From the NCBI GenBank assembly GCA_031291995.1, contig JARLHZ010000004.1, positions 5,272-69,271 on the forward strand: a stretch of 64,000 nt of DNA. Direction: 5' to 3'. The notes under the pieces were generated by a model. The model saw nothing but the letters and a program-made list of their open reading frames with translations. It had not been told where the DNA came from and did no database searches. The translations under genes were made by a program, and so were the position numbers. Numbering within the stretch: the first letter of the stretch is position 1; each line of letters begins with the position of its first letter. Positions 5,164-33,445 of this stretch are shown here, one piece after another. This DNA comes from Candidatus Doudnabacteria bacterium. GTDB taxonomy: Bacteria > Patescibacteriota > Doudnabacteria > UBA920.

Positions 5164-6468
5164 TTACGGATAAATATACCCTTTAATATGCGAATCGCTT
5201 GTGGAGACCCAGCGCTGGTCAATCCTGTTAAAATGGTCGTAGTTCATTTCCGAAACCAATATGCGGCCGGAGTCCACGCTTTCCACGTAGGCCACGTGGC
5301 CATAGCGACCATAGCCAGCTCCGCTAAAGACCACGGCCGAATGGCTGGCCGGTTCGCGGCCGGTTACATAGCCGCTGGCACCCGCGTTGGCCAGCCAATT
5401 TTTGGCGTTTCCGCCAAAAGTGATTTTCATTTTAGTCGCCACATAGTAGGTACAATAACCAACCGGGAACAGATGGTTTACCCCATCATAGCCCGAGCTG
5501 ATGCTGGTAACGGTATCGCCGTTGTCGTAAGTTGGGGTATTTTTTGTCTTGGGCTTCGGTTTGGCCGTTGGCGTCGGCACGGGCGGGGGAGTGGTTACAA
5601 CGCCGCCGGGAATTATTAGGAAGTCCCCGGGGTTGATGTCTTCGGCGCTGTCCAGACCGTTGTAGGAAATAATTGTGGCCAGCAACTGCGCCGCGGTCTG
5701 ATCGCGGGTTTGTTTGTTGGTGTTATACCGGTCCGGGCTGTATTGCGCGGCCAGGTCGGGCAGGGTGGTGTTAGGTCCGGCGGTGACCGCCACGCCGTCA
5801 ACCGGCGGGATTATCAGGTTCCATCCCGGCTTTATGGTATTGGAAGTTAGAGAAGGGTTGCTCCAGAGGATGCTGTTGACGGAAATGCCGTTTTTAGCGG
5901 CTATGGATTTTAGGGTATCTCCATCCTGGGTCAGGTAGACTTTTTTAGTTACGTTGCTGACCATGGATTTAAGGCTGTCCGGGCTTGGCGCCACCATGCC
6001 GTTGTTGTCGTCCATAACCGTCCCGCTGTTCTCGGTTGTATTGTCGGAAGACACGGTATCGGGATTCAGTCCGGAAAAATCGTCGGCATAAGCCTGAGGC
6101 ACAAAATTATTTTTGGCCACAACGGTAATGATGCTGGAGTTTTTGGCGTACAGTTTGGCGTTAAGCACCTGGTGGCGGTTAATAAAATTACCGGCCAGGC
6201 TGTTGTCCGCAAAGCTGCCGCCGGTAAAAAAGAATATATTCAGCCCGGCCACCATCAGGCTGAGCATAATTACAAACAGTTCGCTGGAAAATTTCAATAC
6301 AAAATCCATCCAGTCCATCTTTTTTAAATGGATGGCCGGAAAACTCTGCAAATGCAGCCTCTTTAAATTAGGCGCCCTTCGGCTGATGTCGCCGAAAAGC
6401 TGTTTAATTTCCGTTTTGGCGGTAAAGGTCAGGCGGGAAAGGTAGCGTTTGAGTCGCGACCGCCACAA
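5164..6468 (-). CDS. LysM + CHAP domain peptidoglycan hydrolase (membrane anchored)
   Basis: LysM (YLTQDGDTLKSIAAKNGISVNSILWSNP). C-terminal CHAP signature (GYCTYYVATK...GHVAYVESV...VSEMNY). N-terminal TM. The start may be an internal Met. Confidence 0.7.
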   Translation of the reverse strand: MWRSRLKRYLSRLTFTAKTEIKQLFGDISRRAPNLKRLHLQSFPAIHLKKMDWMDFVLKFSSELFVIMLSLMVAGLNIFFFTGGSFADNSLAGNFINRHQVLNAKLYAKNSSIITVVAKNNFVPQAYADDFSGLNPDTVSSDNTTENSGTVMDDNNGMVAPSPDSLKSMVSNVTKKVYLTQDGDTLKSIAAKNGISVNSILWSNPSLTSNTIKPGWNLIIPPVDGVAVTAGPNTTLPDLAAQYSPDRYNTNKQTRDQTAAQLLATIISYNGLDSAEDINPGDFLIIPGGVVTTPPPVPTPTAKPKPKTKNTPTYDNGDTVTSISSGYDGVNHLFPVGYCTYYVATKMKITFGGNAKNWLANAGASGYVTGREPASHSAVVFSGAGYGRYGHVAYVESVDSGRILVSEMNYDHFNRIDQRWVSTSDSHIKGYIYP

Positions 6469-14717: not shown

Positions 14718-15251
14718 ATGCCGAAAAAAGATTCGACCGCGGTAAATGAAGTTTTATTTTGGCTGTACGAGACGGGGAAGCTTTTGTCCGTAATTTTCGC
14801 GTCCAAGCACGAATGGAAAAGGCGGATGTGGAATCATACCTGGGGGAACTACAACAATTATAAATCCACGGTTTACCATATGCGGGAACAGGGGCTGGTG
14901 GAAATCGTGTCCAAAGATGGCTTAAGGTTTTTAAAACTTACGTCCAAAGGGCAAATGGAAGCATTGCTGGCCAAAGCAAAAGTCGTTAAGCGAGCAGTTT
15001 GGGATAAAAAATGGCGGGTGCTGATTTTTGACATCCCGGAAGACGCCAAATTGCAGAGGAACCAATTCAGGCGTCTGTTAAAAAGAAATGAATTTAAAAA
15101 ATTGCAGGCCAGCGTTTATGTAAACCCCTACCCGTTTAACCGCGAGGCAATTGAATATTTAAAAGAATCAGGTTTAATAAAGTACATTCGGATTTTAAAA
15201 GTTGAAGAAATGGACAGTGATGCCGATTTGCGTAAGATGTTTAATATATAG
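14718..15251 (+). CDS. wHTH + Cas2/VapD-fold (PaaX-like) small protein
   Basis: N-terminal winged-helix-like region (VYHMREQGLVEIVSKDGLRFLKLTSKGQ). The C-terminal region matches the Cas2 beta1-alpha1-beta2 pattern (KKWRVLIFDIPED...QFRRLLKRNEFKKLQASVYVN). No cas1 or array is present. Confidence 0.4.
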   Translation: MPKKDSTAVNEVLFWLYETGKLLSVIFASKHEWKRRMWNHTWGNYNNYKSTVYHMREQGLVEIVSKDGLRFLKLTSKGQMEALLAKAKVVKRAVWDKKWRVLIFDIPEDAKLQRNQFRRLLKRNEFKKLQASVYVNPYPFNREAIEYLKESGLIKYIRILKVEEMDSDADLRKMFNI

Positions 15252-24782: not shown

Positions 24783-25181
24783 ATGGCAGATCAAAACAAA
24801 ATAATCCATAAGGATCTCAGTTATAAAATTGTCGGTGTTGCTTTTAGATCTTTTAAGGCAACAGGATATGGAATGCCTGAAAAGTACTGTCAAGGTGTGT
24901 TCGCTGCCGAACTTGAGAAAGCTGGGTTGCACTTTAATCGGGAAGTTTATGTTACTTTAAATTATGAAGGTAAAGTTATCACAAAGTATTTTTTAGATTT
25001 TATTGTTGAAGATTCGGTGGTTGTGGAATTAAAAGTTCGGCCAAAAATCGGATATGCCCATATTGAACAAGTAATGGCATACCTTAAAGCAACGAATAAG
25101 AAATTAGCGATTTTAATCTATTTTACCCAAGAAGGTGTGAAATATCGGAGAATCGTTAATTCTTACAACAAACTACAATGA
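24783..25181 (+). CDS. GxxExxY-family protein (PD-(D/E)XK-like)
   Basis: DLSYKIVGVAFRSFKATGYGMPEKYCQGVFAAELEKAGL...FLDFIVEDSVVVELKV...IEQVMAYLKATNKKLAILIYF. Confidence 0.7.
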   Translation: MADQNKIIHKDLSYKIVGVAFRSFKATGYGMPEKYCQGVFAAELEKAGLHFNREVYVTLNYEGKVITKYFLDFIVEDSVVVELKVRPKIGYAHIEQVMAYLKATNKKLAILIYFTQEGVKYRRIVNSYNKLQ

Positions 25182-25225: not shown

Positions 25226-25909
25226 ATGAAGCTTGAAATGCAAAACAAAAAAAAGCCTATTGGGAAGCCGACGCAGAATTTTTTGCGTATTTCGGAAATA
25301 AAAAACGACACCGTGGTTATGGACGACGGAACTTTGCGGGTCATAATTATGGTGTCCAGCACCAATTTTGACTTAAAGAGCCAGGACGAACAGAATTCCA
25401 TTATTTTCGGTTTCCAGCGGTTTTTAAACAGCCTGGAATTTCCCGTCCAGATTCTCATGCAAAGCCGAAAAATGGAGATTGGCGGCTATTTGGAAAAATT
25501 AAAGAAATTGGCGGACAAGCAGACCAACGAGCTCCTCCGCGTCCAGACCAACGAATACGTGGAGTTTATTTCCCGGCTCATTGAGAACGCCAGCATTATG
25601 AATAAGAATTTTTATATTGTCGTCCCTCTGGGGGAAAGCATTTTTCCGGCCGCCGCGGGGTTCTTTAGCCGCGTATTCGGCAGGGGGCGGGAACGGGAAG
25701 TTACCGAGCGGATAGAAAATTTTGAAAAGGCCAAAGAAAAATTGGACAACCGCGCCACCTCGCTGGCCTCCAACCTTTCGGGTATTGGCATTCGGGCAGA
25801 ACGAATGAAGACGGAAGAAATTATCCAGCTGTATTATAATTCCTATAATTTTGAATCGGGCCCGCTGATAAACCCGGGAGAGCTTAAAGAAATCAAACTA
25901 TCACAATAA
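25226..25909 (+). CDS. protein resembling a VirB4/TrbE N-terminal domain (no ATPase motifs)
   Basis: FLRISEIKNDTVVMDDGTLRVIIMVSSTNFDLKSQDEQNSIIFGFQRFLNSLEFPVQILMQSR resembles the CagE/TrbE/VirB4 N-region. Confidence 0.3.
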   Translation: MKLEMQNKKKPIGKPTQNFLRISEIKNDTVVMDDGTLRVIIMVSSTNFDLKSQDEQNSIIFGFQRFLNSLEFPVQILMQSRKMEIGGYLEKLKKLADKQTNELLRVQTNEYVEFISRLIENASIMNKNFYIVVPLGESIFPAAAGFFSRVFGRGREREVTERIENFEKAKEKLDNRATSLASNLSGIGIRAERMKTEEIIQLYYNSYNFESGPLINPGELKEIKLSQ

Positions 25910-26032: not shown

Positions 26033-27880
26033 ATGTCTATTTTTAGCAAACTCACCGAACAGGATTTAGAACAAAAAAAGGCTCAGCTCAAGGAAAAGGA
26101 GAAGGAACATTCCCTGAGTTCGTCATTGGGCGATTTGGAAAAAACCTATAAGGAAGGCTTGACGACGTTAAAGGATATTATCGCGCCGTCGGCTTTAAAA
26201 TTTGAAGGGTCGCATTTTGAATTAAACGGCAAATACGGCCGCAGTTTTTTCGTGCTGGCCTATCCGCGCTTTTTGTCCAGCAACTGGCTGTCGTTTATAA
26301 TCCAGGCGGACGGAGCCCTGGATTTGTCGATGTTTATTTATCCCATAGACTCGGCGGACATTCTAAAAAAATTAAAGAGCAAGGTCGGGGAACTTGGTTC
26401 GCAAATGTCCATTAACCAGGAAAAGGGCATGGTCCGCGACCCGATGCTGGAGACGGCTTACAAAGACGTGGAAGGCCTGCGCGACAACTTAATGCAGGGT
26501 ACGGAAAAGTATTTTCGGTTCGCCCTGTACTTTACAATATACGCCAACGATTTAAAGGAACTGGACAAATCATCCTCGACCCTGGAAAGCAGCCTGGGGG
26601 CCAAGCTGATTGTTACCAAACGGGCGCTGCTTCAGACGCAGAACGGACTGAATTCCACGCTTCCCATGGGTTTGGACGAACTGGACGTGGCCAATAACAT
26701 GAATACCAGCCCGCTGTCCTCGTGTTTTCCTTTTGTGTCATCGGATTTGACTTCCAACGACGGGATTTTATACGGCATTAACCGACACAATAACAGTTTG
26801 ATATTATTTGACCGTTTTGCCATGGAAAATGCCAACTCCGTTGTGTTTGCCAAGTCCGGCGCGGGGAAGTCTTACGCGGTCAAATTGGAAGTTTTACGAA
26901 GTCTCATGGTTGGCACAGACGTTATTATCGTGGATCCGGAAAATGAGTACCAGCATTTGGCCGCGGCTGTTGGCGGAACTTATTTGAGCGTCAGTTTAAA
27001 TTCCCCGTCCCGCATTAACCCGTTTGATTTGCCGGTTGCCGTGGAAGGTGAAAGCAACGCGGACGTCCTGCGCAGTTCGGTTATTAACTTGCTGGGTTTG
27101 TTCAGTTTGATGCTGGGCAAGCTAAATCCCACCGAAGAAGCCATTATGGACAAGGCCATTTGGCAAACTTACGCCAAAAAAGATATTACATCCGAATTGG
27201 AAGATTTTAAAAACATTGAGTGCCCGACCATGAACGATTTGATGGAAATTTTAAACAGCATGGTCGGAGCCGAGAGCCTGGCTCAGCGGCTGACCAAATT
27301 TACCGAAGGCACTTTTGGCGGATTGCTAAACCAGGCGACCAACGTGGTGCTTAACAACCAGCTGGTGGTATTTTCCATCCGCGATTTGGAAGAGGAACTG
27401 AGGCCAATAGCCATGTATATTATTTTAAATTACATTTGGAATGTCGTCCGCAGCGAATTAAAGCGCCGCATTCTGGCCGTGGACGAAGCCTGGATACTCA
27501 TGCAGCATGAAGACAGCGCCAGGTTCCTGTTCGGTATTGCCAAACGCGCCCGTAAATATTACCTTGGCCTGACCACCATTACCCAGGACGTGGCCGACTT
27601 TTTGGCCAGCCCCTACGGCAAACCGATTGTGACCAACTCGTCCATCCAAATGTTGTTAAAACAATCCCCGGCGGCTATTAATGTAATCGCTGAAACATTC
27701 TTTTTGACCGAGGGAGAAAAATATTTATTGCTGGAAAGCGAAGTCGGCGAAGGGATATTTTTTGCCGGGCTGAAGCACGCGGCCATCAAAATTTACGCGT
27801 CCTACGTGGAAGACCAAATAATTACCACCGACCCCAAACAGCTTTTGGAAATTCAGGACAGCCAGGAAAAGTTGAACTAA
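26033..27880 (+). CDS. VirB4/TrbE-family type IV secretion ATPase
   Basis: Walker A FAKSGAGKSYAV, Walker B ILAVDEAWILM, and a VirB4-like N-region (GKYGRSFFVLAYPRFLSSNWLSFII...DLSMFIYPID). Confidence 0.65.
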   Translation: MSIFSKLTEQDLEQKKAQLKEKEKEHSLSSSLGDLEKTYKEGLTTLKDIIAPSALKFEGSHFELNGKYGRSFFVLAYPRFLSSNWLSFIIQADGALDLSMFIYPIDSADILKKLKSKVGELGSQMSINQEKGMVRDPMLETAYKDVEGLRDNLMQGTEKYFRFALYFTIYANDLKELDKSSSTLESSLGAKLIVTKRALLQTQNGLNSTLPMGLDELDVANNMNTSPLSSCFPFVSSDLTSNDGILYGINRHNNSLILFDRFAMENANSVVFAKSGAGKSYAVKLEVLRSLMVGTDVIIVDPENEYQHLAAAVGGTYLSVSLNSPSRINPFDLPVAVEGESNADVLRSSVINLLGLFSLMLGKLNPTEEAIMDKAIWQTYAKKDITSELEDFKNIECPTMNDLMEILNSMVGAESLAQRLTKFTEGTFGGLLNQATNVVLNNQLVVFSIRDLEEELRPIAMYIILNYIWNVVRSELKRRILAVDEAWILMQHEDSARFLFGIAKRARKYYLGLTTITQDVADFLASPYGKPIVTNSSIQMLLKQSPAAINVIAETFFLTEGEKYLLLESEVGEGIFFAGLKHAAIKIYASYVEDQIITTDPKQLLEIQDSQEKLN

Positions 27881-28040
27881 TTTCAAATTACAAATAACAA
27901 ATTTCAAATAAATTCCTAATTTTAAGCGCCAAATAATATCCAAAAGGCCGCGTGTTAAATTTCAAAAGTCCGGGTTTGGCCTTTGAAATTTGGATTTTGG
28001 CGTTGGTTTGATATTTGGAATTTGTAATTTGGAATTTTTT
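27881..28040. repeat. word-built hairpin(s), caaatttcaaat family
   Basis: tttcaaattacaaataacaaatttcaaat ... atttgaaatttggattttggcgttggtttgatatttggaatttgtaatttggaat. Confidence 0.6.
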
Positions 28041-28045
28041 ATTTT

Positions 28046-31000
28046 ATGGCCCAAGCAGCAACAACCGGAATTGACTCGGCGTCATCATCTGGAATACAGC
28101 CAACACCGGGACGTTCGACGGGAGGCGGGTCCAGAAAACCCAAGCTGATTGTTTTGGGCAAGCCGTTTTCCGGCGGAGCGTTTGTCTCTTACGTGTTTGT
28201 TAACGGCAAACCGGCTCCGGCAAATACCGCGGCGCAGTTAAAGCCGGGCGACGAAATCGCCATTGCCGGCGGCGGTTTGGTCGGGTTTTTAAGTTGGACA
28301 TTTTTCCAGCTGGGCCGCCCGGGAAAACCAATCGCGATTTTAACCGCGCACAGCGACAGCCGCGTGGTTTTTCAGGCGCCCGACTGGCATAACGCGTTTG
28401 ACCCGGGCCTGCCGATAATGCTCGCGTTTACCGACAAAGACAAAAATTCGGTATGGGGAATTCCGGTGTCTTTTTCCTTTGGCGAAGAATCCGAAAAAGA
28501 CCAGCAGCGGGCCGGGGGTAAAAAAATAGAAGACCAGCTAAATCGCAAGTTCGGTGAAGGGCAAAAAACCGGAGACGGTAATCTGGCAATGGAAGCGACC
28601 GGCGCGGCGCTCGCGGGTGTTTTGTCGCCGTTTATGCCGGGAGCCGATAAGGCGGCGGCGCGCGATGCTTTGGCTGCCGCTTTTAAATCGGGAGACTATA
28701 AGAAAGTTGAACAGGCAATCAACAATCTTAAAACGATGGGCAAGGATGGTGCTGAAATCATGCGGGAGTTCAGGGGTGTGCCGCCGCAGTTTCGATCGCT
28801 TTTAGACAAGGCTATTATTGATATAAATAATCAGACGATAACAAAGGCGGAGGTCGTAAGTAACTTGGAGAAAATCGCCGACACGGCTAATGTTGATGAC
28901 TTTGATGCTGAACAGGAGGGTGGCGGCCAACAAATTCAGACTTCAGAGGAAATATCATCAGCAACGTCAGGCGGCGGACAGTCCACTGTAAGCGTTCAGG
29001 AATCAGGCGGCGATGGGGCCTCATCTACAGTTGCAAGTTCAGGTTCCGCGGGCGGTACGGTTTCCTCAACGGTTACCGGTTCCGGCGATGGGGCGGGTAG
29101 CTCTACGGTCAATACCAACCAAAAGAGTACGGCGGAAATTAATCAACAGTCCACGGCGCGGGCGGCGTCGGGTGGCGGGGGCGGGACAAAAGTTACCGGT
29201 CAGGCTCAGGCGAGCGCGGGAGTTTCGGGGCAAGTTCCGATATCGGCCGGTAACCAGCAATCCTCCAAAGTCAGTAGCGGGATTTCCGGCGGCGTATCTG
29301 CAGCGGCAGGCGCAGGAATTGCGGCTGCGGTTGATTCAGCAGTCGGCGGGTTAAAAATTAGTTCAGTTGCCACAAAAGGACCGGCAGGTCCGGAAACTTT
29401 GCCAAAAAAACCGTCCGGCGAGTCGGCTGTTCTTGTGCAACCGGCCGGCGGGCAAAAATTGAACGTTACCGCGAAACTGGACCAGCGGACATTATCGGAT
29501 GTATCTGGCAAGCCTCAGGGTCAAGGGTTGGTTCCGGCATCTTTGATGAAAACCGGCGCTCCTGCGGGCTCGCCATCGGCAAAACAAGTGGGCAAGGGGC
29601 GAGGGGAAGTTGGCGGGGCTGCAAAAATGCAAGGATCGAAACAAGAAAATATCGCGCGCCCGTCCCCGCAGGAAGTTAATTTAAAATTAGAAACCCAAAC
29701 AATTTTAAAAGCGGAGGCAAAGACTGAAACTCCGACCGCATCTGAAGTCCCGTCCGGGATGAAAGAGATGTTCGAGAACGAGAGTGTCATGCGCCGGTTG
29801 AGTTTGGGGCGTGAAATTGCGGAACAGCAACCGGCCGAACCACCGTCTGGCGATAGCGCTCAACACGGGACTGGCAGGGAGGGCAAAGATCACGGGGCCC
29901 GGGATAAAGAGCCTTCACCGCCACCTCAAATTCCACGACGTCCGGAACCCGGAGAAATTAAGGAAGCCTTAAAGCCGCCAGCTCCTTTGCCGCCGAACCC
30001 GAAAGGGGAGTCAAATGCCGCTGGCGCGGCATCGGAAGGCCAGGGGCCTGAATCGGGACGCGAACCCAATGTCCCCGGGGAGCATTTGAACGCGCCTGCG
30101 TCTCCGGAAAATTTGGGCGAAGGCGGCCCGGGTGCGGCGGCCGGTGGAGCGCCGGTAGCGGCCGGTCAAGGTGAGGGTGGTACAGCCGGTCAAGGGGAAG
30201 AAGAAGCCGAGGAAGACGCGGCCGACGAAACGGGAGCTGGAGCGGCGGGTCGCCAGCCAGGTATGCCGGCAGTGCCTGTGCCGGGAGTGGCGGCCGGCAA
30301 GACCGGTCAGGGTAAAGGAAAAGGCGAAAAAGATAAACTTATTAAAGAAGCGACCGATTTGGTGAATACGGAGATGAACGGTTTCCTTAGCCAAGGAGCC
30401 ATTTGGGTGTGGGCGGTTGCCATTCCTTCGTTCGGACTTGCCGTAATTTTGGGTGCTGTTGTGGGCGATTTGCTGTTTGCCTTAAAAAAACGCCTGATTA
30501 AAATGGCGCTGGATAAAGTTTGGATTGCCAAAACTATTGTGGGTGACGAAATAACTCCCGACGAAATTGCCGACAACATCAATTTTAGCGTGGGCGTTAA
30601 GGCCAATGTCGCGGTAATGAATTTGATAACGGTATTAATGGTAGTACTTGTGATTATTTTTACCGGCGCGGTGGCATACTTAGGCTGTACATGGCCGCTG
30701 GGCAAGACAGTTGCCAGCGCGACAAATTATCAATTTACTATTTTAGGCGCCGCCGGTCTTAGTGGTGTTTGCCAGTCGATGACAAATGTTAATGTGTCAT
30801 TAAATAATTCCATTAATGCCTCCACCCCCGTCGGCTCCTGCGCCATTCTGCCTTCCGGAATCGCCACGCCGGGGCAGTTGGCTTTGACTTGTTTCGGGTC
30901 CAATCCCACCATAGACGCAACCGCCTCAATTGTCGCGGCGCATGAAAGCGGCGGGAACCCCGCAATTCCAAGCTCTGTAGATATATGCCAGCCCGGAGGA

Positions 31001-31294
31001 CAGCCGGTGTCGTTTGGACTATTTCAAATTAACATTACCAACCATAAAATTAACGGCCTTAACTGCCCGGCGGCATTCGATTATCCCGCCGGAGTCAGTC
31101 CGCGCGAATATGATGCCAACAACCATCAATGTACGATTGTAGATCAAACGTTATATAATAACTGTGTGACCGCGGCGGAAACAGCGGAATATAACATTGC
31201 GGCGGCCTGTCAAATTTCCGGCAACGGGACCAACTGGGGCGCCTGGCAGGCCGACATTAACGCTTGCGGGATTAGTAAAACAATTAGTCCATAA
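28046..31294 (+). CDS. giant low-complexity membrane protein with a C-terminal lytic transglycosylase (SLT) domain. A VirB1/PrgK-like cell-wall remodelling enzyme
   Basis: About 750 aa of G/S/A/P/E-rich sequence, a TM region (AIWVWAVAIPSFGLAVILGAVVGDLLF ... LITVLMVVLVIIFTGAVAYLG), then the SLT motif IVAAHESGGNP...QPVSFGLFQINIT. Confidence 0.55.
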   Translation: MAQAATTGIDSASSSGIQPTPGRSTGGGSRKPKLIVLGKPFSGGAFVSYVFVNGKPAPANTAAQLKPGDEIAIAGGGLVGFLSWTFFQLGRPGKPIAILTAHSDSRVVFQAPDWHNAFDPGLPIMLAFTDKDKNSVWGIPVSFSFGEESEKDQQRAGGKKIEDQLNRKFGEGQKTGDGNLAMEATGAALAGVLSPFMPGADKAAARDALAAAFKSGDYKKVEQAINNLKTMGKDGAEIMREFRGVPPQFRSLLDKAIIDINNQTITKAEVVSNLEKIADTANVDDFDAEQEGGGQQIQTSEEISSATSGGGQSTVSVQESGGDGASSTVASSGSAGGTVSSTVTGSGDGAGSSTVNTNQKSTAEINQQSTARAASGGGGGTKVTGQAQASAGVSGQVPISAGNQQSSKVSSGISGGVSAAAGAGIAAAVDSAVGGLKISSVATKGPAGPETLPKKPSGESAVLVQPAGGQKLNVTAKLDQRTLSDVSGKPQGQGLVPASLMKTGAPAGSPSAKQVGKGRGEVGGAAKMQGSKQENIARPSPQEVNLKLETQTILKAEAKTETPTASEVPSGMKEMFENESVMRRLSLGREIAEQQPAEPPSGDSAQHGTGREGKDHGARDKEPSPPPQIPRRPEPGEIKEALKPPAPLPPNPKGESNAAGAASEGQGPESGREPNVPGEHLNAPASPENLGEGGPGAAAGGAPVAAGQGEGGTAGQGEEEAEEDAADETGAGAAGRQPGMPAVPVPGVAAGKTGQGKGKGEKDKLIKEATDLVNTEMNGFLSQGAIWVWAVAIPSFGLAVILGAVVGDLLFALKKRLIKMALDKVWIAKTIVGDEITPDEIADNINFSVGVKANVAVMNLITVLMVVLVIIFTGAVAYLGCTWPLGKTVASATNYQFTILGAAGLSGVCQSMTNVNVSLNNSINASTPVGSCAILPSGIATPGQLALTCFGSNPTIDATASIVAAHESGGNPAIPSSVDICQPGGQPVSFGLFQINITNHKINGLNCPAAFDYPAGVSPREYDANNHQCTIVDQTLYNNCVTAAETAEYNIAAACQISGNGTNWGAWQADINACGISKTISP

Positions 31295-31484: not shown

Positions 31485-31965
31485 AAATTGCCATATGAAA
31501 CCAATATATAAAATTTTAATCGGGGTTATTGTCGGCGGGATATTTTTATTCAGCATCTATTTGGCCGTAACTTCCCAAAAACAGGTCGCCAGCCCTGCAA
31601 CGGTACCGATAACCGGACCAACCTTAACCGTGCCGGCCAAGGGCGGCAGTCTGCCGGTTAGCGATTTTACCAAACATCCCCAGGAAGTTCTTGGGGCCAC
31701 TACCGTAATTAAGCAGAACGACAATTACAGTATTGTCTATTTCCCCGTAGACCAAAGTTTTTTAATTACAATTTTAGCCCAGCCCGTCCAGCAGAACCGC
31801 GATGCCGCGGAACAGCTGTTACTTAGCCAGTTGCAGGTGAGCGAGGCCGATGCCTGCAAACTGGCCGTTTCCTTAACCGTGCCGGCCGGCGTTAGCGAAC
31901 AACTGGCCGGAGTTGACTACGGTTTGAGTTTTTGCCCCAATGGCAAGGCATTTCCGTCACAGTGA
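31485..31965 (+). CDS. hypothetical membrane-anchored protein (start taken at MKPIYKIL)
   Basis: TM helix ILIGVIVGGIFLFSIYLAV. The ORF-track start at 31402 lies inside the repeat element. Confidence 0.4.
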
Positions 31966-32257: not shown

Positions 32258-33445
32258 ATGAATAAAAAAGCCATTGCCATTTTAGGGGCCATATTTGTCT
32301 TGATTGTCGGGACTTTGGGTTTTTTGATATATCTTAAATACTCCGGTTCATCCAAAACCCCGGCTCCTTCCGCGAACCAAAATCAAAATGGAAATCCCGC
32401 CGCCGGCAGCCAGCCTGCCACCACGACAGCCCAAACGACCGGGCAGAATCCGGCTACGACAACTCCCGTTACCGGTCCGCCTCCCGCCATGGGGCTTTTG
32501 ACCTCGGACCAGGTGGTTTCACCCGCTTTATTTTTTAACGGCGGAGGTATAACCTATTTCGACAACCAGGGAAATTTATTCCAGGCGGCAATACAAACTA
32601 ACGCGGGGCAGTTGTCGTTAACCGGCAAAAAGCAACTGGATATCCCCACAAAGTCCAGCATCACAAAAATTTTCTGGCCGCAAAAAGGCAACGATTTTAT
32701 AATCCAGACCAATAATCCCGTCACCGGCCGGTACTCCTGGAGTTATTTTAACAGCACACTTGGGACTTATACCGATTTCCCGCCTCAGGTCGCGTCTTTT
32801 GACTGGATGCCAAACGGAACCCAAATCGCGTATATTTGGATAAACGGCGGCAAAGCAGTTTTGGAAGCGGGAGATCCGGCATTTAAATCATGGCAGAAAA
32901 TCGGGGATTTATATCAAAATGACAATGTTATAAGCGTGTCGCCGGACGGATCACAAATATTGTTTTACGAATCCGAGCCCGCCGGGACGCAAAATCCGAT
33001 TAATTCGGTGAGCATAGACGGTAAAGTCTGGAAGGGACTTATTAAAGACGGCTTTAATTACGGCGTGTTGTGGAGTCCGGATGGTCAGAAGTTTATTTTT
33101 GGGAAAAAAGATCCGGTCAGCCTTCAATTCCAATTGTGGTATGACAATTTGGCTTCCGGAGAAACTAAGAATTTGGGATTATTTACCACTACGCAAAAAG
33201 CCGTTTGGGGGTCTGACAGTAATACCATTTACGCCGCGGTGCCATCTTCGCCTGCCGCCAACCCAAACAGCCTGACCAACGACACTTTTTTCCGATTAAA
33301 CACAACTACTCTGGACAAACAGCAGTTCAGCATCGGTAATACGCCGGTGGACGGAGAAAATTTGTTTTTGAGTACGGATGGAAATGACCTGTTTTTTAAG
33401 AACGCGCAGGACGGCGGCTTGTATTATTTGAACGTTGCCCAATAG
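32258..33445 (+). CDS. membrane-anchored TolB-like (PD40/WD40-like beta-propeller) protein
   Basis: N-terminal TM, a T/P/Q-rich linker, then repeated SPDGSQILF / WSPDGQKFIF PD40-like motifs. Confidence 0.45.
   Translation: MNKKAIAILGAIFVLIVGTLGFLIYLKYSGSSKTPAPSANQNQNGNPAAGSQPATTTAQTTGQNPATTTPVTGPPPAMGLLTSDQVVSPALFFNGGGITYFDNQGNLFQAAIQTNAGQLSLTGKKQLDIPTKSSITKIFWPQKGNDFIIQTNNPVTGRYSWSYFNSTLGTYTDFPPQVASFDWMPNGTQIAYIWINGGKAVLEAGDPAFKSWQKIGDLYQNDNVISVSPDGSQILFYESEPAGTQNPINSVSIDGKVWKGLIKDGFNYGVLWSPDGQKFIFGKKDPVSLQFQLWYDNLASGETKNLGLFTTTQKAVWGSDSNTIYAAVPSSPAANPNSLTNDTFFRLNTTTLDKQQFSIGNTPVDGENLFLSTDGNDLFFKNAQDGGLYYLNVAQ

Follow-up and report, generated by a model that had tools for sequence, protein, structure and literature searches.

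Which enzyme opens the cell wall for the type IV secretion systems (T4SSs) of Patescibacteria? T4SS genes are essential for epibiotic growth in the only Patescibacteria that are genetically tractable, relaxase and coupling proteins are missing (PMC10633639, PMC12102498), and the parts list of the machine is incomplete. A published survey sought VirB1 with TrsG, CD419 and VirB1 profiles and pilins with PF18895, found VirB1 rarely linked to virB4, and concluded that pilus biogenesis may not need a VirB1-type hydrolase, suggesting that other glycosidases might substitute (PMC12102498). The family PF18896 is mentioned neither in the text nor in the supplements of that survey. Here we address the question at one locus, in a 64,000-nucleotide stretch of a Candidatus Doudnabacteria contig (the window). 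In this window, a gene for a 1082-amino-acid protein (28046-31294, + strand) directly follows virB4 and ends in a PF18896, or SLT_3, domain. We conclude that it probably encodes the peptidoglycan-cleaving subunit of a chromosomal, Gram-positive-type (MPF-FATA-like) T4SS, the counterpart of PrgK and of TraG of pIP501. It is a candidate for the 'missing' T4SS wall hydrolase of Patescibacteria.

One uninterrupted gene in a conserved slot behind virB4

The gene is a single ATG-initiated open reading frame (ORF) of 1082 codons that runs from 28046 to 31294 without a stop or a frameshift, as an initial annotation of this DNA had it. An identical protein is on public record (NCBI hypothetical protein P4L74_00535 of a Candidatus Doudnabacteria metagenome-assembled genome) with a precomputed PF18896 assignment attached. 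The ORF list, the identical public protein, its long relatives and its conserved slot after virB4 together define the whole gene as encoding a T4SS-linked, membrane-anchored, lysozyme-like protein. The start codon lies 165 bp past the end of virB4, which bears out the initially proposed association with a T4SS.

To place this slot in context, we scanned one genome per GTDB species and obtained 80 loci, nearly all of them labelled as Patescibacteria lineages. In ten other species genomes (L003-L008, L011, L012, L014 and L015), the order of two soluble proteins (p518 and p507), PrgI, a TrsD-like protein, VirB4, a long protein, a 156-aa protein (p156), a PD40 protein and RadA is kept, and the ORF in the same slot is 636-1124 aa long. 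The gene order is collinear with prgH-I-J-K-L of pCF10.

Homologue searches define the family. A k-mer search with the full-length protein found nothing but that protein, its candidates being swamped by low-complexity words, and one with residues 1-295 returned nothing. The C-terminal 308 residues retrieved 14 relatives, mostly of 220-500 aa, and an exhaustive search of 1.84 billion representatives with the C-terminal part retrieved 550, of which 209 scored E<=1e-10. About 28 of the 550 are 950-1200 aa long and carry the same module at their extreme C-terminus. These long members share MAD/MAE N-termini, a beta-sandwich, a GPTGLMMDAxG motif, an ALKSGDKK bundle, a non-alignable low-complexity stretch, a hydrophobic hairpin and the C-terminal domain. 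Some 28 long relatives and ten species with a same-slot ORF show that the ORF is neither due to chance nor chimeric.

The length of the protein could nevertheless stem from an annotation or assembly artefact, in which a sequencing error has fused two distinct genes, one for the low-complexity part and one for the membrane-SLT part, or in which translation truly starts at M777. In favor of such an artefact, the closest k-mer match (P0002) is called at only 319 aa, with a start just before the hydrophobic segments, and P0003 is called at 469 aa. This explanation has hardly any chance of being right, given 1082 codons without a stop, a long ORF in about 28 independent cluster representatives and in the ten species genomes, and the conservation of both the N-termini (MAD...) and the N-terminal domains. 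A frameshift that sets the low-complexity part apart as its own ORF, which the initial annotation had named as grounds for abandoning its reading, was looked for and does not occur. Moreover, the contig that encodes P0002 (L001) is error-prone and palindromic, and the low-complexity region of its inverted copy continues in frame into ...KEALIKEAADFVNPAMNGF, the juxtamembrane helix. The short length of P0002 is a gene-calling artefact and not a split gene.

L001 itself, a public metagenome contig of 9620 bp, is a near-palindrome, its first half being the reverse complement of the second in degraded form. The palindrome is probably an assembly artefact and the source of short gene calls such as P0002.

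The C-terminal domain resembles lysozymes

The SLT_3 (PF18896) lysozyme-like domain spans residues 931-1078 (30836-31279, +), as delimited by Pfam, conservation and an AlphaFold2 (AF2) model, and holds 8 of the 10 cysteines of the protein. The two motifs that first drew attention to it, AAHESGG (E967-S968, with E967 encoded by GAA at 30944-30946) and GLFQIN (991-996), both lie within the last ~150 residues, that is at the extreme C-terminus as initially described. Pfam SLT_3 ('Lysozyme like domain') matches residues 958-1067 with E=1e-5 and 26.3 bits, and a relative of 73% identity (P0016) scores 35.5 bits. The Pfam soluble lytic transglycosylase (SLT) family PF01464 has no match in the protein at E<=0.1, and NCBIfam has none.

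In 142 relatives, the candidate catalytic glutamate E967, whose absence would have spoken against an enzyme, is invariant (100%), as are C1007, C1040, C1074 and W1067, and S968 (99%), S989 (98%) and D979 (97%) are nearly so. The set was chosen on the GLFQIN motif, so that columns 991-996 are not independent. In the AF2 model, which has a pLDDT of 87-98 over most of the domain, E967 sits at the C-terminal end of a helix and is followed by short strands, a layout that would match the classic lysozyme arrangement. A Foldseek search of the PDB with the domain gave five matches, all of which contain C-type lysozyme (three the enzyme alone, two complexes), with non-significant E-values of 0.8-4; the matches in a viral fold library (LT_GEWL and phi29 gp13-type) are likewise non-significant. 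When aligned by hhalign to hen egg-white lysozyme (HEWL; sequence verified), E967 falls on Glu35, FGLFQIN on YGILQIN, and GNGTNWGAW..C on GNGMNAWVAW..C. This alignment has 30% identity over 82 columns and is not significant (P 1e-3 and 0.1 in two runs, probability 0.6-20%). The residue aligned to HEWL Asp52 is ambiguous, namely S989 or, structurally, perhaps D979.

Some family members carry a different domain in the position of the enzyme. P0031, P0143 and P0160 have the long scaffold (N-terminal domains, low-complexity region and hairpin) followed by a different C-terminal ~215 aa with the motifs ..VVVQKESGG...YGIGLTQWT. In P0031, this domain scores as PF01464 SLT with E 2e-4 and 21.2 bits against a cut-off of 21.3. 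When compared with SLT_3 by hhalign, the alternative domain of these three proteins shows only a short C-terminal match with a probability of 4%. This is a domain swap at the enzyme position, which suggests that the function selected there is glycan-strand cleavage.

From these observations we infer that the domain is a glycan-strand-cleaving enzyme of the lysozyme superfamily with E967 as its acid catalyst. The initial annotation had called it a C-terminal lytic transglycosylase. A lysozyme/SLT-type domain does stand at the C-terminal end, as claimed; transglycosylase chemistry is not established, and both a hydrolase with D979 as second carboxylate and a lytic transglycosylase are compatible with the domain. 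PrgK carries a domain called 'SLT' that turned out to be a muramidase (PMC11323569), and so the chemistry is not to be read from the SLT name.

Alternatively, the domain could be a catalytically dead scaffold whose sole role is to bind peptidoglycan and fix the T4SS to the wall, as with the degenerate LytM domain in PrgK. The weak fold match to lysozymes leaves room for this idea. It is nonetheless very improbable, since E967 is strictly invariant and S968, D979, S989 and GLFQIN are near-invariant across 142 diverse relatives. In line with this, the replacement domain found in some members also has an E-S motif, and that of P0031 scores as PF01464 just under the cut-off.

The N-terminal part is length-conserved and, by prediction, partly folded

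Ahead of the enzyme, the initial annotation described ~750 residues of extreme low complexity. This is an overestimate, as residues 30-147 and 200-290 are predicted to be folded; the low-complexity description stands for the ~470 residues from 291 to 763. The first 29 residues are unstructured and without a signal peptide. They are followed by an Ig-like beta-sandwich (residues 30-147; 28133-28486, +), which AF2 models from alignment A3 with 8 strands and a block pLDDT of 87-97, and which is alignable in all long members. Its Foldseek matches in the PDB are Ig V, Rel-homology C-terminal (IPT), SoxYZ, NPC2 and LAIR-1 (E 2e-4 to 5e-3, prob ~1.0). An acidic linker with a pLDDT below 50 (residues 148-199; 28487-28642, +) ends in a hydrophobic motif, GNLAMEATGAALAGVLSPFMPG, that is kept in the alignments (family consensus GPTGLMMDAxG..G.V.PF). 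Next comes a helical bundle (residues 200-290; 28643-28915, +; AF2 helices at 200-286, pLDDT 74-90), with the consensus ALKSGDKKxI...K..GD..GL across the family in alignment A3.

The low-complexity region (residues 291-763; 28916-30334, +), defined by block composition and entropy, is probably disordered. Its first half is rich in G, S, T, A, Q and V; its second half is acidic and rich in P, E, G and A. Block entropy goes down to 2.8-3.2 bits only within 301-450 and 651-750. In the 28 long proteins, the central region consists of 48% G+S+A+T+Q, 24% P+E+K and 17% hydrophobic residues, has a median net charge of -13.5, and contains no Cys in any of them, the 1082-aa protein included. Across the family, the sequence of this region is not alignable and its length is kept. 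Thus, 688-915 residues precede the first hydrophobic segment (median 782, n=28; about 782-784 in the 1082-aa protein), and the check on length conservation that the initial annotation had called for comes out positive. Embedded in the region is a short linear motif, MKEMFENESVMRRLSLG (residues 572-588; 29759-29809, +), with the approximate pattern [LF]xxN[DE]xxLxR, which is seen in most of 22 long members (alignment A2). A disordered region of ~470 residues has kept its length, its composition and one embedded motif across deep divergence.

Recent tandem duplication was considered as the origin of the low-complexity region and rejected, as we found no tandem DNA repeats of note under it, only four tiny G+C-rich ones.

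Within a locus that is otherwise conserved, the SLT_3 gene diverges fastest. In a close relative (L002), VirB4 has 98% protein identity over its last 54 residues, the C-terminal part of the SLT_3 protein is 49% identical, and the N-terminal part is replaced, showing that the N-terminal module turns over between close relatives. In this locus, two ORFs stand in place of the 1082-aa gene: L002:1428-2837 encodes P0003, a 469-aa hairpin-SLT_3 protein with a different N-terminal part of ~190 aa, and L002:339-1238, upstream of it, is an unrelated 299-aa ORF with a weak Pfam match to PT-TG, the pre-toxin TG domain of polymorphic toxins. This ORF was considered as a split-off N-terminal domain and rejected for lack of similarity.

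Two hydrophobic segments separate the N-terminal part from the enzyme

The single transmembrane (TM) segment of the initial annotation proved to be two hydrophobic segments, 785-813 and 855-880. They are preceded by a conserved juxtamembrane helix, KLIKEATDLVNTEMNGFL (residues 764-784; 30335-30397, +), which forms a block in alignment A2 and is helical in AF2 from fragment residue 6. Segment 1, AIWVWAVAIPSFGLAVILGAVVGDLLFAL (30398-30484, +), identified by hydropathy, has 29 residues with a central P-S-F-G turn, and is either a transmembrane helix or a re-entrant hairpin. Within it, W789 and G803 are invariant, and A804 and D808 nearly so. A basic loop, KKRLIKMALDKVWIAK... (residues 814-854; 30485-30607, +), connects it to segment 2 (30608-30685, +; hydropathy 2.8), which ends in ...AYLG|C881 with C881 invariant. 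Segment 2 is the predicted transmembrane anchor leading into the extracytoplasmic part, and single-anchor relatives retain only a segment-2-type span. The linker that follows (residues 881-930; 30686-30835, +) has a low pLDDT (fragment residues 115-154) and contains the invariant C881 and C909.

Cysteines and charges indicate on which side of the membrane the parts lie. All 10 Cys of the protein are located after segment 2, and 9 of them are invariant among long members; the N-terminal parts of the 28 long proteins contain only 3 Cys in ~22,000 residues. A charge census of these 28 proteins counted 215 K+R against 97 D+E in the loop, 34 against 47 in the 20 residues before segment 1, and 31 against 8 in the 20 residues after segment 2. 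The loop is predicted to be cytoplasmic because it is strongly basic, and the C-terminal part to be outside because of its 10 conserved Cys and the charge-poor flank after segment 2. To judge from these sequence features, the SLT_3 domain would lie outside the cytoplasmic membrane.

This anatomy does not support the initial idea of a tether with a muramidase tip. In the chain, the anchor comes after the disordered region and before the enzyme, so that, under either of the topology models considered below, the one lies opposite the other across the anchor. Because the two are on opposite sides of the anchor and the enzyme is joined to it by a linker of only ~50 residues, the disordered region is unable to hold the enzyme off the membrane.

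The SLT_3 protein occurs in a long and a pilin-fused form

The SLT_3 protein comes in two forms, one of ~300 aa fused to a pilin, and one of ~1000 aa at the PrgK position directly after virB4. The commonest architecture is the former, consisting of a signal peptide, a VirB2-like pilin domain (PF18895), a linker and SLT_3 in ~300 aa (280-430 aa). Examples are P0004, P0006-P0015 and many of P0037-P0161, and it is found in loci L013, L017, L021-L023, L036, L042, L045, L049, L053, L054, L067 and L082. Most loci other than those with the long form encode an SLT_3 protein of ~300 aa, in which a signal peptide and two pilin-type helices (PF18895 in the annotated cases) precede SLT_3. The short-form gene lies 3-5 kb after virB4, behind genes for three proteins: a small one with 2-3 TM segments, a six-TM one of ~220 aa, and a secreted, C-terminally anchored one of 785-1108 aa.

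These pilin-SLT_3 proteins from the candidate phyla radiation (CPR) represent the closest relatives of the 1082-aa protein by descent. They share with it the SLT_3 domain (31-51% identity) with its invariant residues and Cys pattern, the p156 and PD40 genes downstream, and the T4SS neighbourhood. By contrast, they have a cleavable signal peptide and a pilin domain and lack the ~780-residue N-terminal part. The published survey would have counted them as VirB2 pilins only. In the literature, we found no paper on the ~1000-aa family, on the pilin-lysozyme fusion as such, or on the conserved partner gene.

With VirB2-like pilins, the 1082-aa protein has in common two hydrophobic segments and a basic loop, whereas its loop is ~40 residues long rather than ~10 and it has no signal peptide. 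PF18895 matches neither the 1082-aa protein (E<=0.1) nor eight long members (E<=0.5), and a comparison of 24 hairpins with 55 pilin regions by hhalign gave a probability of 1%. The notion that the hairpin is a degenerate VirB2 pilin was rejected on these results as untestable by sequence. We also rejected an origin of the long form by fusion of genes that short-form loci encode separately, as the profiles of its N-terminal part and hairpin match none of the intervening proteins.

A PrgK-like position and a conserved candidate partner

By position and layout, the closest functional analogue of the protein would be PrgK of Enterococcus faecalis pCF10 (the 'DELTA' class), followed by TraG of pIP501. 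PrgK has an intracellular N-terminal domain of ~253 residues (of low AlphaFold confidence), a TM helix at 254-274 and three extracellular domains, and binds PrgL (PMC11323569). Both genes stand directly after that of the VirB4 ATPase and before that of a small anchored protein (prgJ-prgK-prgL), in a Gram-positive-type T4SS. The layout of a poorly ordered N-terminal region inside, an anchor, and an extracellular glycan-cleaving domain with a catalytic Glu would also be the same. The two proteins differ in the N-terminal part. Here it has ~780 residues to the ~253 of PrgK, about three times as many, and includes an Ig-like domain, a helical bundle and the ~470-residue spacer. They differ further in the anchor, a two-segment hairpin rather than one helix, and in the enzymatic part, a single Cys-rich SLT_3 catalytic domain with neither LytM nor CHAP. 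No sequence similarity to PrgK was detected and no direct comparison was made, the likeness being one of position and layout. The premise of the initial annotation that PrgK-type hydrolases are compact did not hold up, as the catalytic residues of PrgK reach as far as His828 in its numbering (PMC11323569).

VirB1 of Agrobacterium tumefaciens and the family-1 lytic transglycosylases resemble the domain in their E-S motif with a G-L-x-Q ~25 residues later, and VirB1 in its role in opening peptidoglycan for a T4SS, putative in our case. VirB1 is however small, soluble and periplasmic with a signal peptide, while the 1082-aa protein is without a PF01464 match, and its invariant Asp (D979) and 10 Cys are not characteristic of family-1 enzymes. 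C-type lysozyme (hen egg-white, glycoside hydrolase family GH22) is disulfide-rich and extracellular, as the SLT_3 domain is predicted to be; here the domain is bacterial and membrane-anchored. A parallel closer to Doudnabacteria comes from the Saccharibacterium Southlakia epibionticum ML1, in which lysozyme and peptidase homologues just downstream of virB4 are essential for epibiotic growth, according to PMC12102498 citing Wang et al. 2023. These homologues occupy the same position relative to virB4, and we liken them to the 1082-aa protein by position only, not by sequence.

What is new in this probable T4SS wall hydrolase is that both its catalytic family and its anchor are different ones, and that its N-terminal part is giant, mostly disordered and conserved in length. 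The principle of T4SS hydrolases is unchanged; the value of the finding lies in completing the parts list of an essential and enigmatic CPR machine.

Immediately downstream lies the gene for a 156-aa protein (p156; 31495-31965, +) with a membrane anchor at its N-terminus. Its ~125-aa domain has two invariant Cys and ends in G.DYGLSFCPNGK (alignment A4). In most of the 80 CPR loci, the SLT_3 gene, be it of the long or the pilin-fused form, is followed by a p156 homologue (for example L021:10357-10842, L045:10438-10878 and L003:10993-11472). These data indicate that the SLT_3 protein and its small anchored partner are a conserved part of T4SS loci in many CPR lineages. The slot of p156 is that of prgL, which is VirB8-like, after prgK. 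Judged by this analogy, p156, a conserved candidate partner, could be a VirB8 analogue or else an inhibitor or immunity protein.

A model for wall opening, and its alternatives

How might such a protein work? We propose that it would be made without a signal peptide and that its first ~780 residues would stay in the cytoplasm beside the VirB4/TrsD ATPase. Segment 1 would dip into the membrane from inside or lie in it, and the basic loop would stay inside. Segment 2 would then cross the membrane and place the Cys-rich linker and the disulfide-rich SLT_3 domain outside. There, E967 would act as the general acid, possibly aided by D979, and local cuts in glycan strands would let the channel or pilus through the wall. 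The conserved partner p156 would probably dock or restrain the enzyme, as PrgL does for PrgK. The N-terminal part, with its hydrophobic motif and the short motif embedded in it, may be a cytoplasmic scaffold or spacer that contacts other parts of the T4SS.

Several points count against this proposal. The Pfam score of the protein itself lies 0.7 bit under the PF18896 gathering threshold of 27 bits, and searches of PDB sequences with the domain and with the profile of alignment A1 found no relatives. p156 was not upheld as a recognisable VirB8 or PrgL homologue, having no Pfam match and no PDB sequence or profile match. Two true transmembrane helices with the basic loop inside would, by the positive-inside rule alone, put the N-terminal part outside, and Ig-like beta-sandwiches and S/T/G/P/E-rich spacers are commoner in extracellular proteins. 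Lastly, the wall that is cut may be the producer's own or that of a host.

The topological points lead to an alternative in which both segments span the membrane, the basic loop is inside as in VirB2 pilins, and both ends are outside. The ~470-residue region would then be a wall-spanning surface stalk that shows an Ig-like/helical head to the host, with the lysozyme domain at its base. Consistent with this arrangement, the loop is basic and the flank before segment 1 net acidic (215/97 and 34/47 in the census), and the Ig-like fold with an acidic, Cys-free, S/T/G/P/E-rich spacer resembles Gram-positive surface proteins. The commoner short relatives, which carry this SLT_3 domain behind a signal peptide and a VirB2-like pilin domain (PF18895), point the same way. 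So does the separate secreted, C-terminally anchored 785-1108-aa protein encoded just upstream in short-form loci, which has the topology expected of a fusion.

Yet such a stalk needs unconventional export of the N-terminal part, for example extraction by the T4SS or VirB4, and none of the 28 long members, all of which start with acidic MAD/MAE-type termini, has a signal peptide. To our knowledge, N-tail translocation of ~780 residues with two folded domains is beyond known cases. Furthermore, the hairpin shows no detectable pilin homology, and the profiles of N-terminal part and hairpin find no counterpart upstream in short-form loci, by the comparisons described above. Relatives with a single span also bear on the question. 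P0075 keeps the homologous N-terminal domains with a single hydrophobic stretch, and the shorter P0034, P0038 and P0054 have a charged/low-complexity N-terminal extension, basic residues, one span and then SLT_3, a layout that is unambiguously type II, N-in. Single-span relatives with such extensions must be N-in, and an intracellular N-terminal part has a precedent in PrgK. Because of the missing signal peptide, the ~780 residues with two folded domains, these relatives and the PrgK precedent, a cytoplasmic N-terminal part with a re-entrant or interfacial segment 1 is the likelier of the two models, and we regard the surface stalk as unlikely.

Less likely still is an extended version of the N-out arrangement, in which the VirB4 machinery exports the protein, as a giant surface subunit of the T4SS that lacks a signal peptide, and its Ig-like head contacts the host while the basal lysozyme-like domain opens peptidoglycan. 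If true, together with the pilin-SLT_3 fusions of other CPR lineages, it would mean that the secretion pili or stalks of Patescibacteria are physically coupled to a wall-cutting enzyme for breaching the host.

Whichever way the N-terminal part faces, the enzyme could be a host-directed weapon or feeding tool that acts on host peptidoglycan at the epibiont contact, instead of or besides the producer's own wall, and opens the envelope of the host for exchange through the T4SS. Lytic transglycosylases of Patescibacteria have been suggested to damage the envelopes of hosts (PMC11665869). The need for the T4SS in epibiotic growth and the missing relaxase and coupling proteins (PMC10633639, PMC12102498) fit this purpose, as does the rapid divergence of the SLT_3 gene within its locus (in L002, 98% identity at the VirB4 end, 49% in the C-terminal part, and a replaced N-terminal part). 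However, the ~50-residue linker to the producer's membrane limits the reach of the enzyme, and the protein has no recognisable secretion signal or cleavage site. p156 could be an immunity protein and equally a docking subunit. We hold the host-directed role to be unlikely as well, if a little less so than the surface stalk, and retain a subunit that opens the wall for its own T4SS as the preferred reading.

The surrounding T4SS locus

The genes around the SLT_3 gene complete the picture of a Gram-positive-type T4SS. At its upstream end lies a gene for a 1253-aa polytopic membrane protein (16171-19932, +), which by hydropathy combines a signal peptide and large hydrophilic domains with at least five hydrophobic spans (373-669). 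Neither Pfam nor NCBIfam gives a match; several related loci have conserved parts of it upstream of PrgI, and by its position it is a candidate for an extended VirB6/PrgH-like channel subunit. The two soluble proteins p518 and p507, of ~510 aa each, are encoded between it and PrgI (VirB3-like; 24201-24653, +; Pfam PF12666, E 3.9e-13). A 227-aa protein (25226-25909, +) is TrsD-like, or like the N-terminal part of VirB4, by weak NCBIfam matches far below the cut-offs (33.4 bits for the N-part of VirB4_plasma, cut-off 590; 26.5 bits for TrsD, cut-off 200). The 615-aa VirB4-like conjugal-transfer ATPase (CD1110 family; 26033-27880, +) is assigned by NCBIfam NF045971 (363.8 bits, cut-off 325) and by the Pfam families TraG P-loop and CagE_TrbE_VirB. 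VirB4 function is thus split between the 227-aa ORF and the 615-aa ATPase that it precedes, an arrangement kept in related loci.

Downstream of the SLT_3 gene, the order is the anchored p156, an anchored PD40/TolB-like beta-propeller (32258-33445, +; Pfam PD40 and synteny), RadA and RecG. In many CPR loci the propeller is conserved two genes past the SLT_3 gene, and it may be one more part of the system in the envelope. In ABY1-type loci, T4SS genes are co-localised with radA and recG (PMC12102498), which matches the present locus. The remainder of the window consists of housekeeping genes (tRNA synthetases, UvrD and KsgA), and we therefore take the T4SS to be chromosomal.

Two small genes interrupt the operon. 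A four-helix-bundle protein of the 23S-rRNA-intervening-sequence type (23749-24123, +) lies between p507 and PrgI, and a PD-(D/E)XK (PDDEXK_3) protein (24783-25181, +) between PrgI and the TrsD-like ORF. The core genes on either side of these two insertions have tblastn matches in related loci that lie closer together.

The window contains 10 occurrences of a heptad-like DNA repeat, (ATTTGNA)n, such as ATTTGGAATTTGTAATTTGGAATT, where 0 are expected. Its sites are at 27879-28036 (the spacer between virB4 and the SLT_3 gene), 10170, 21037-21067, 22388, 23709-23739 and 25996, several of them between T4SS genes. In the spacer, which they fill, two inverted copies form a palindrome with 41-nt arms and an RNA fold of -48.8 kcal/mol (z = -4.4). 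This palindrome may act as a terminator or attenuator, or it may be an intergenic element specific to the lineage.

Outside the T4SS operon, the window encodes a second cell-wall hydrolase, a 433-aa LysM + CHAP protein (5164-6468, - strand). A 177-aa protein with a PaaX central/Cas2-like domain (14718-15251, +) is encoded ~900 bp upstream of the operon.

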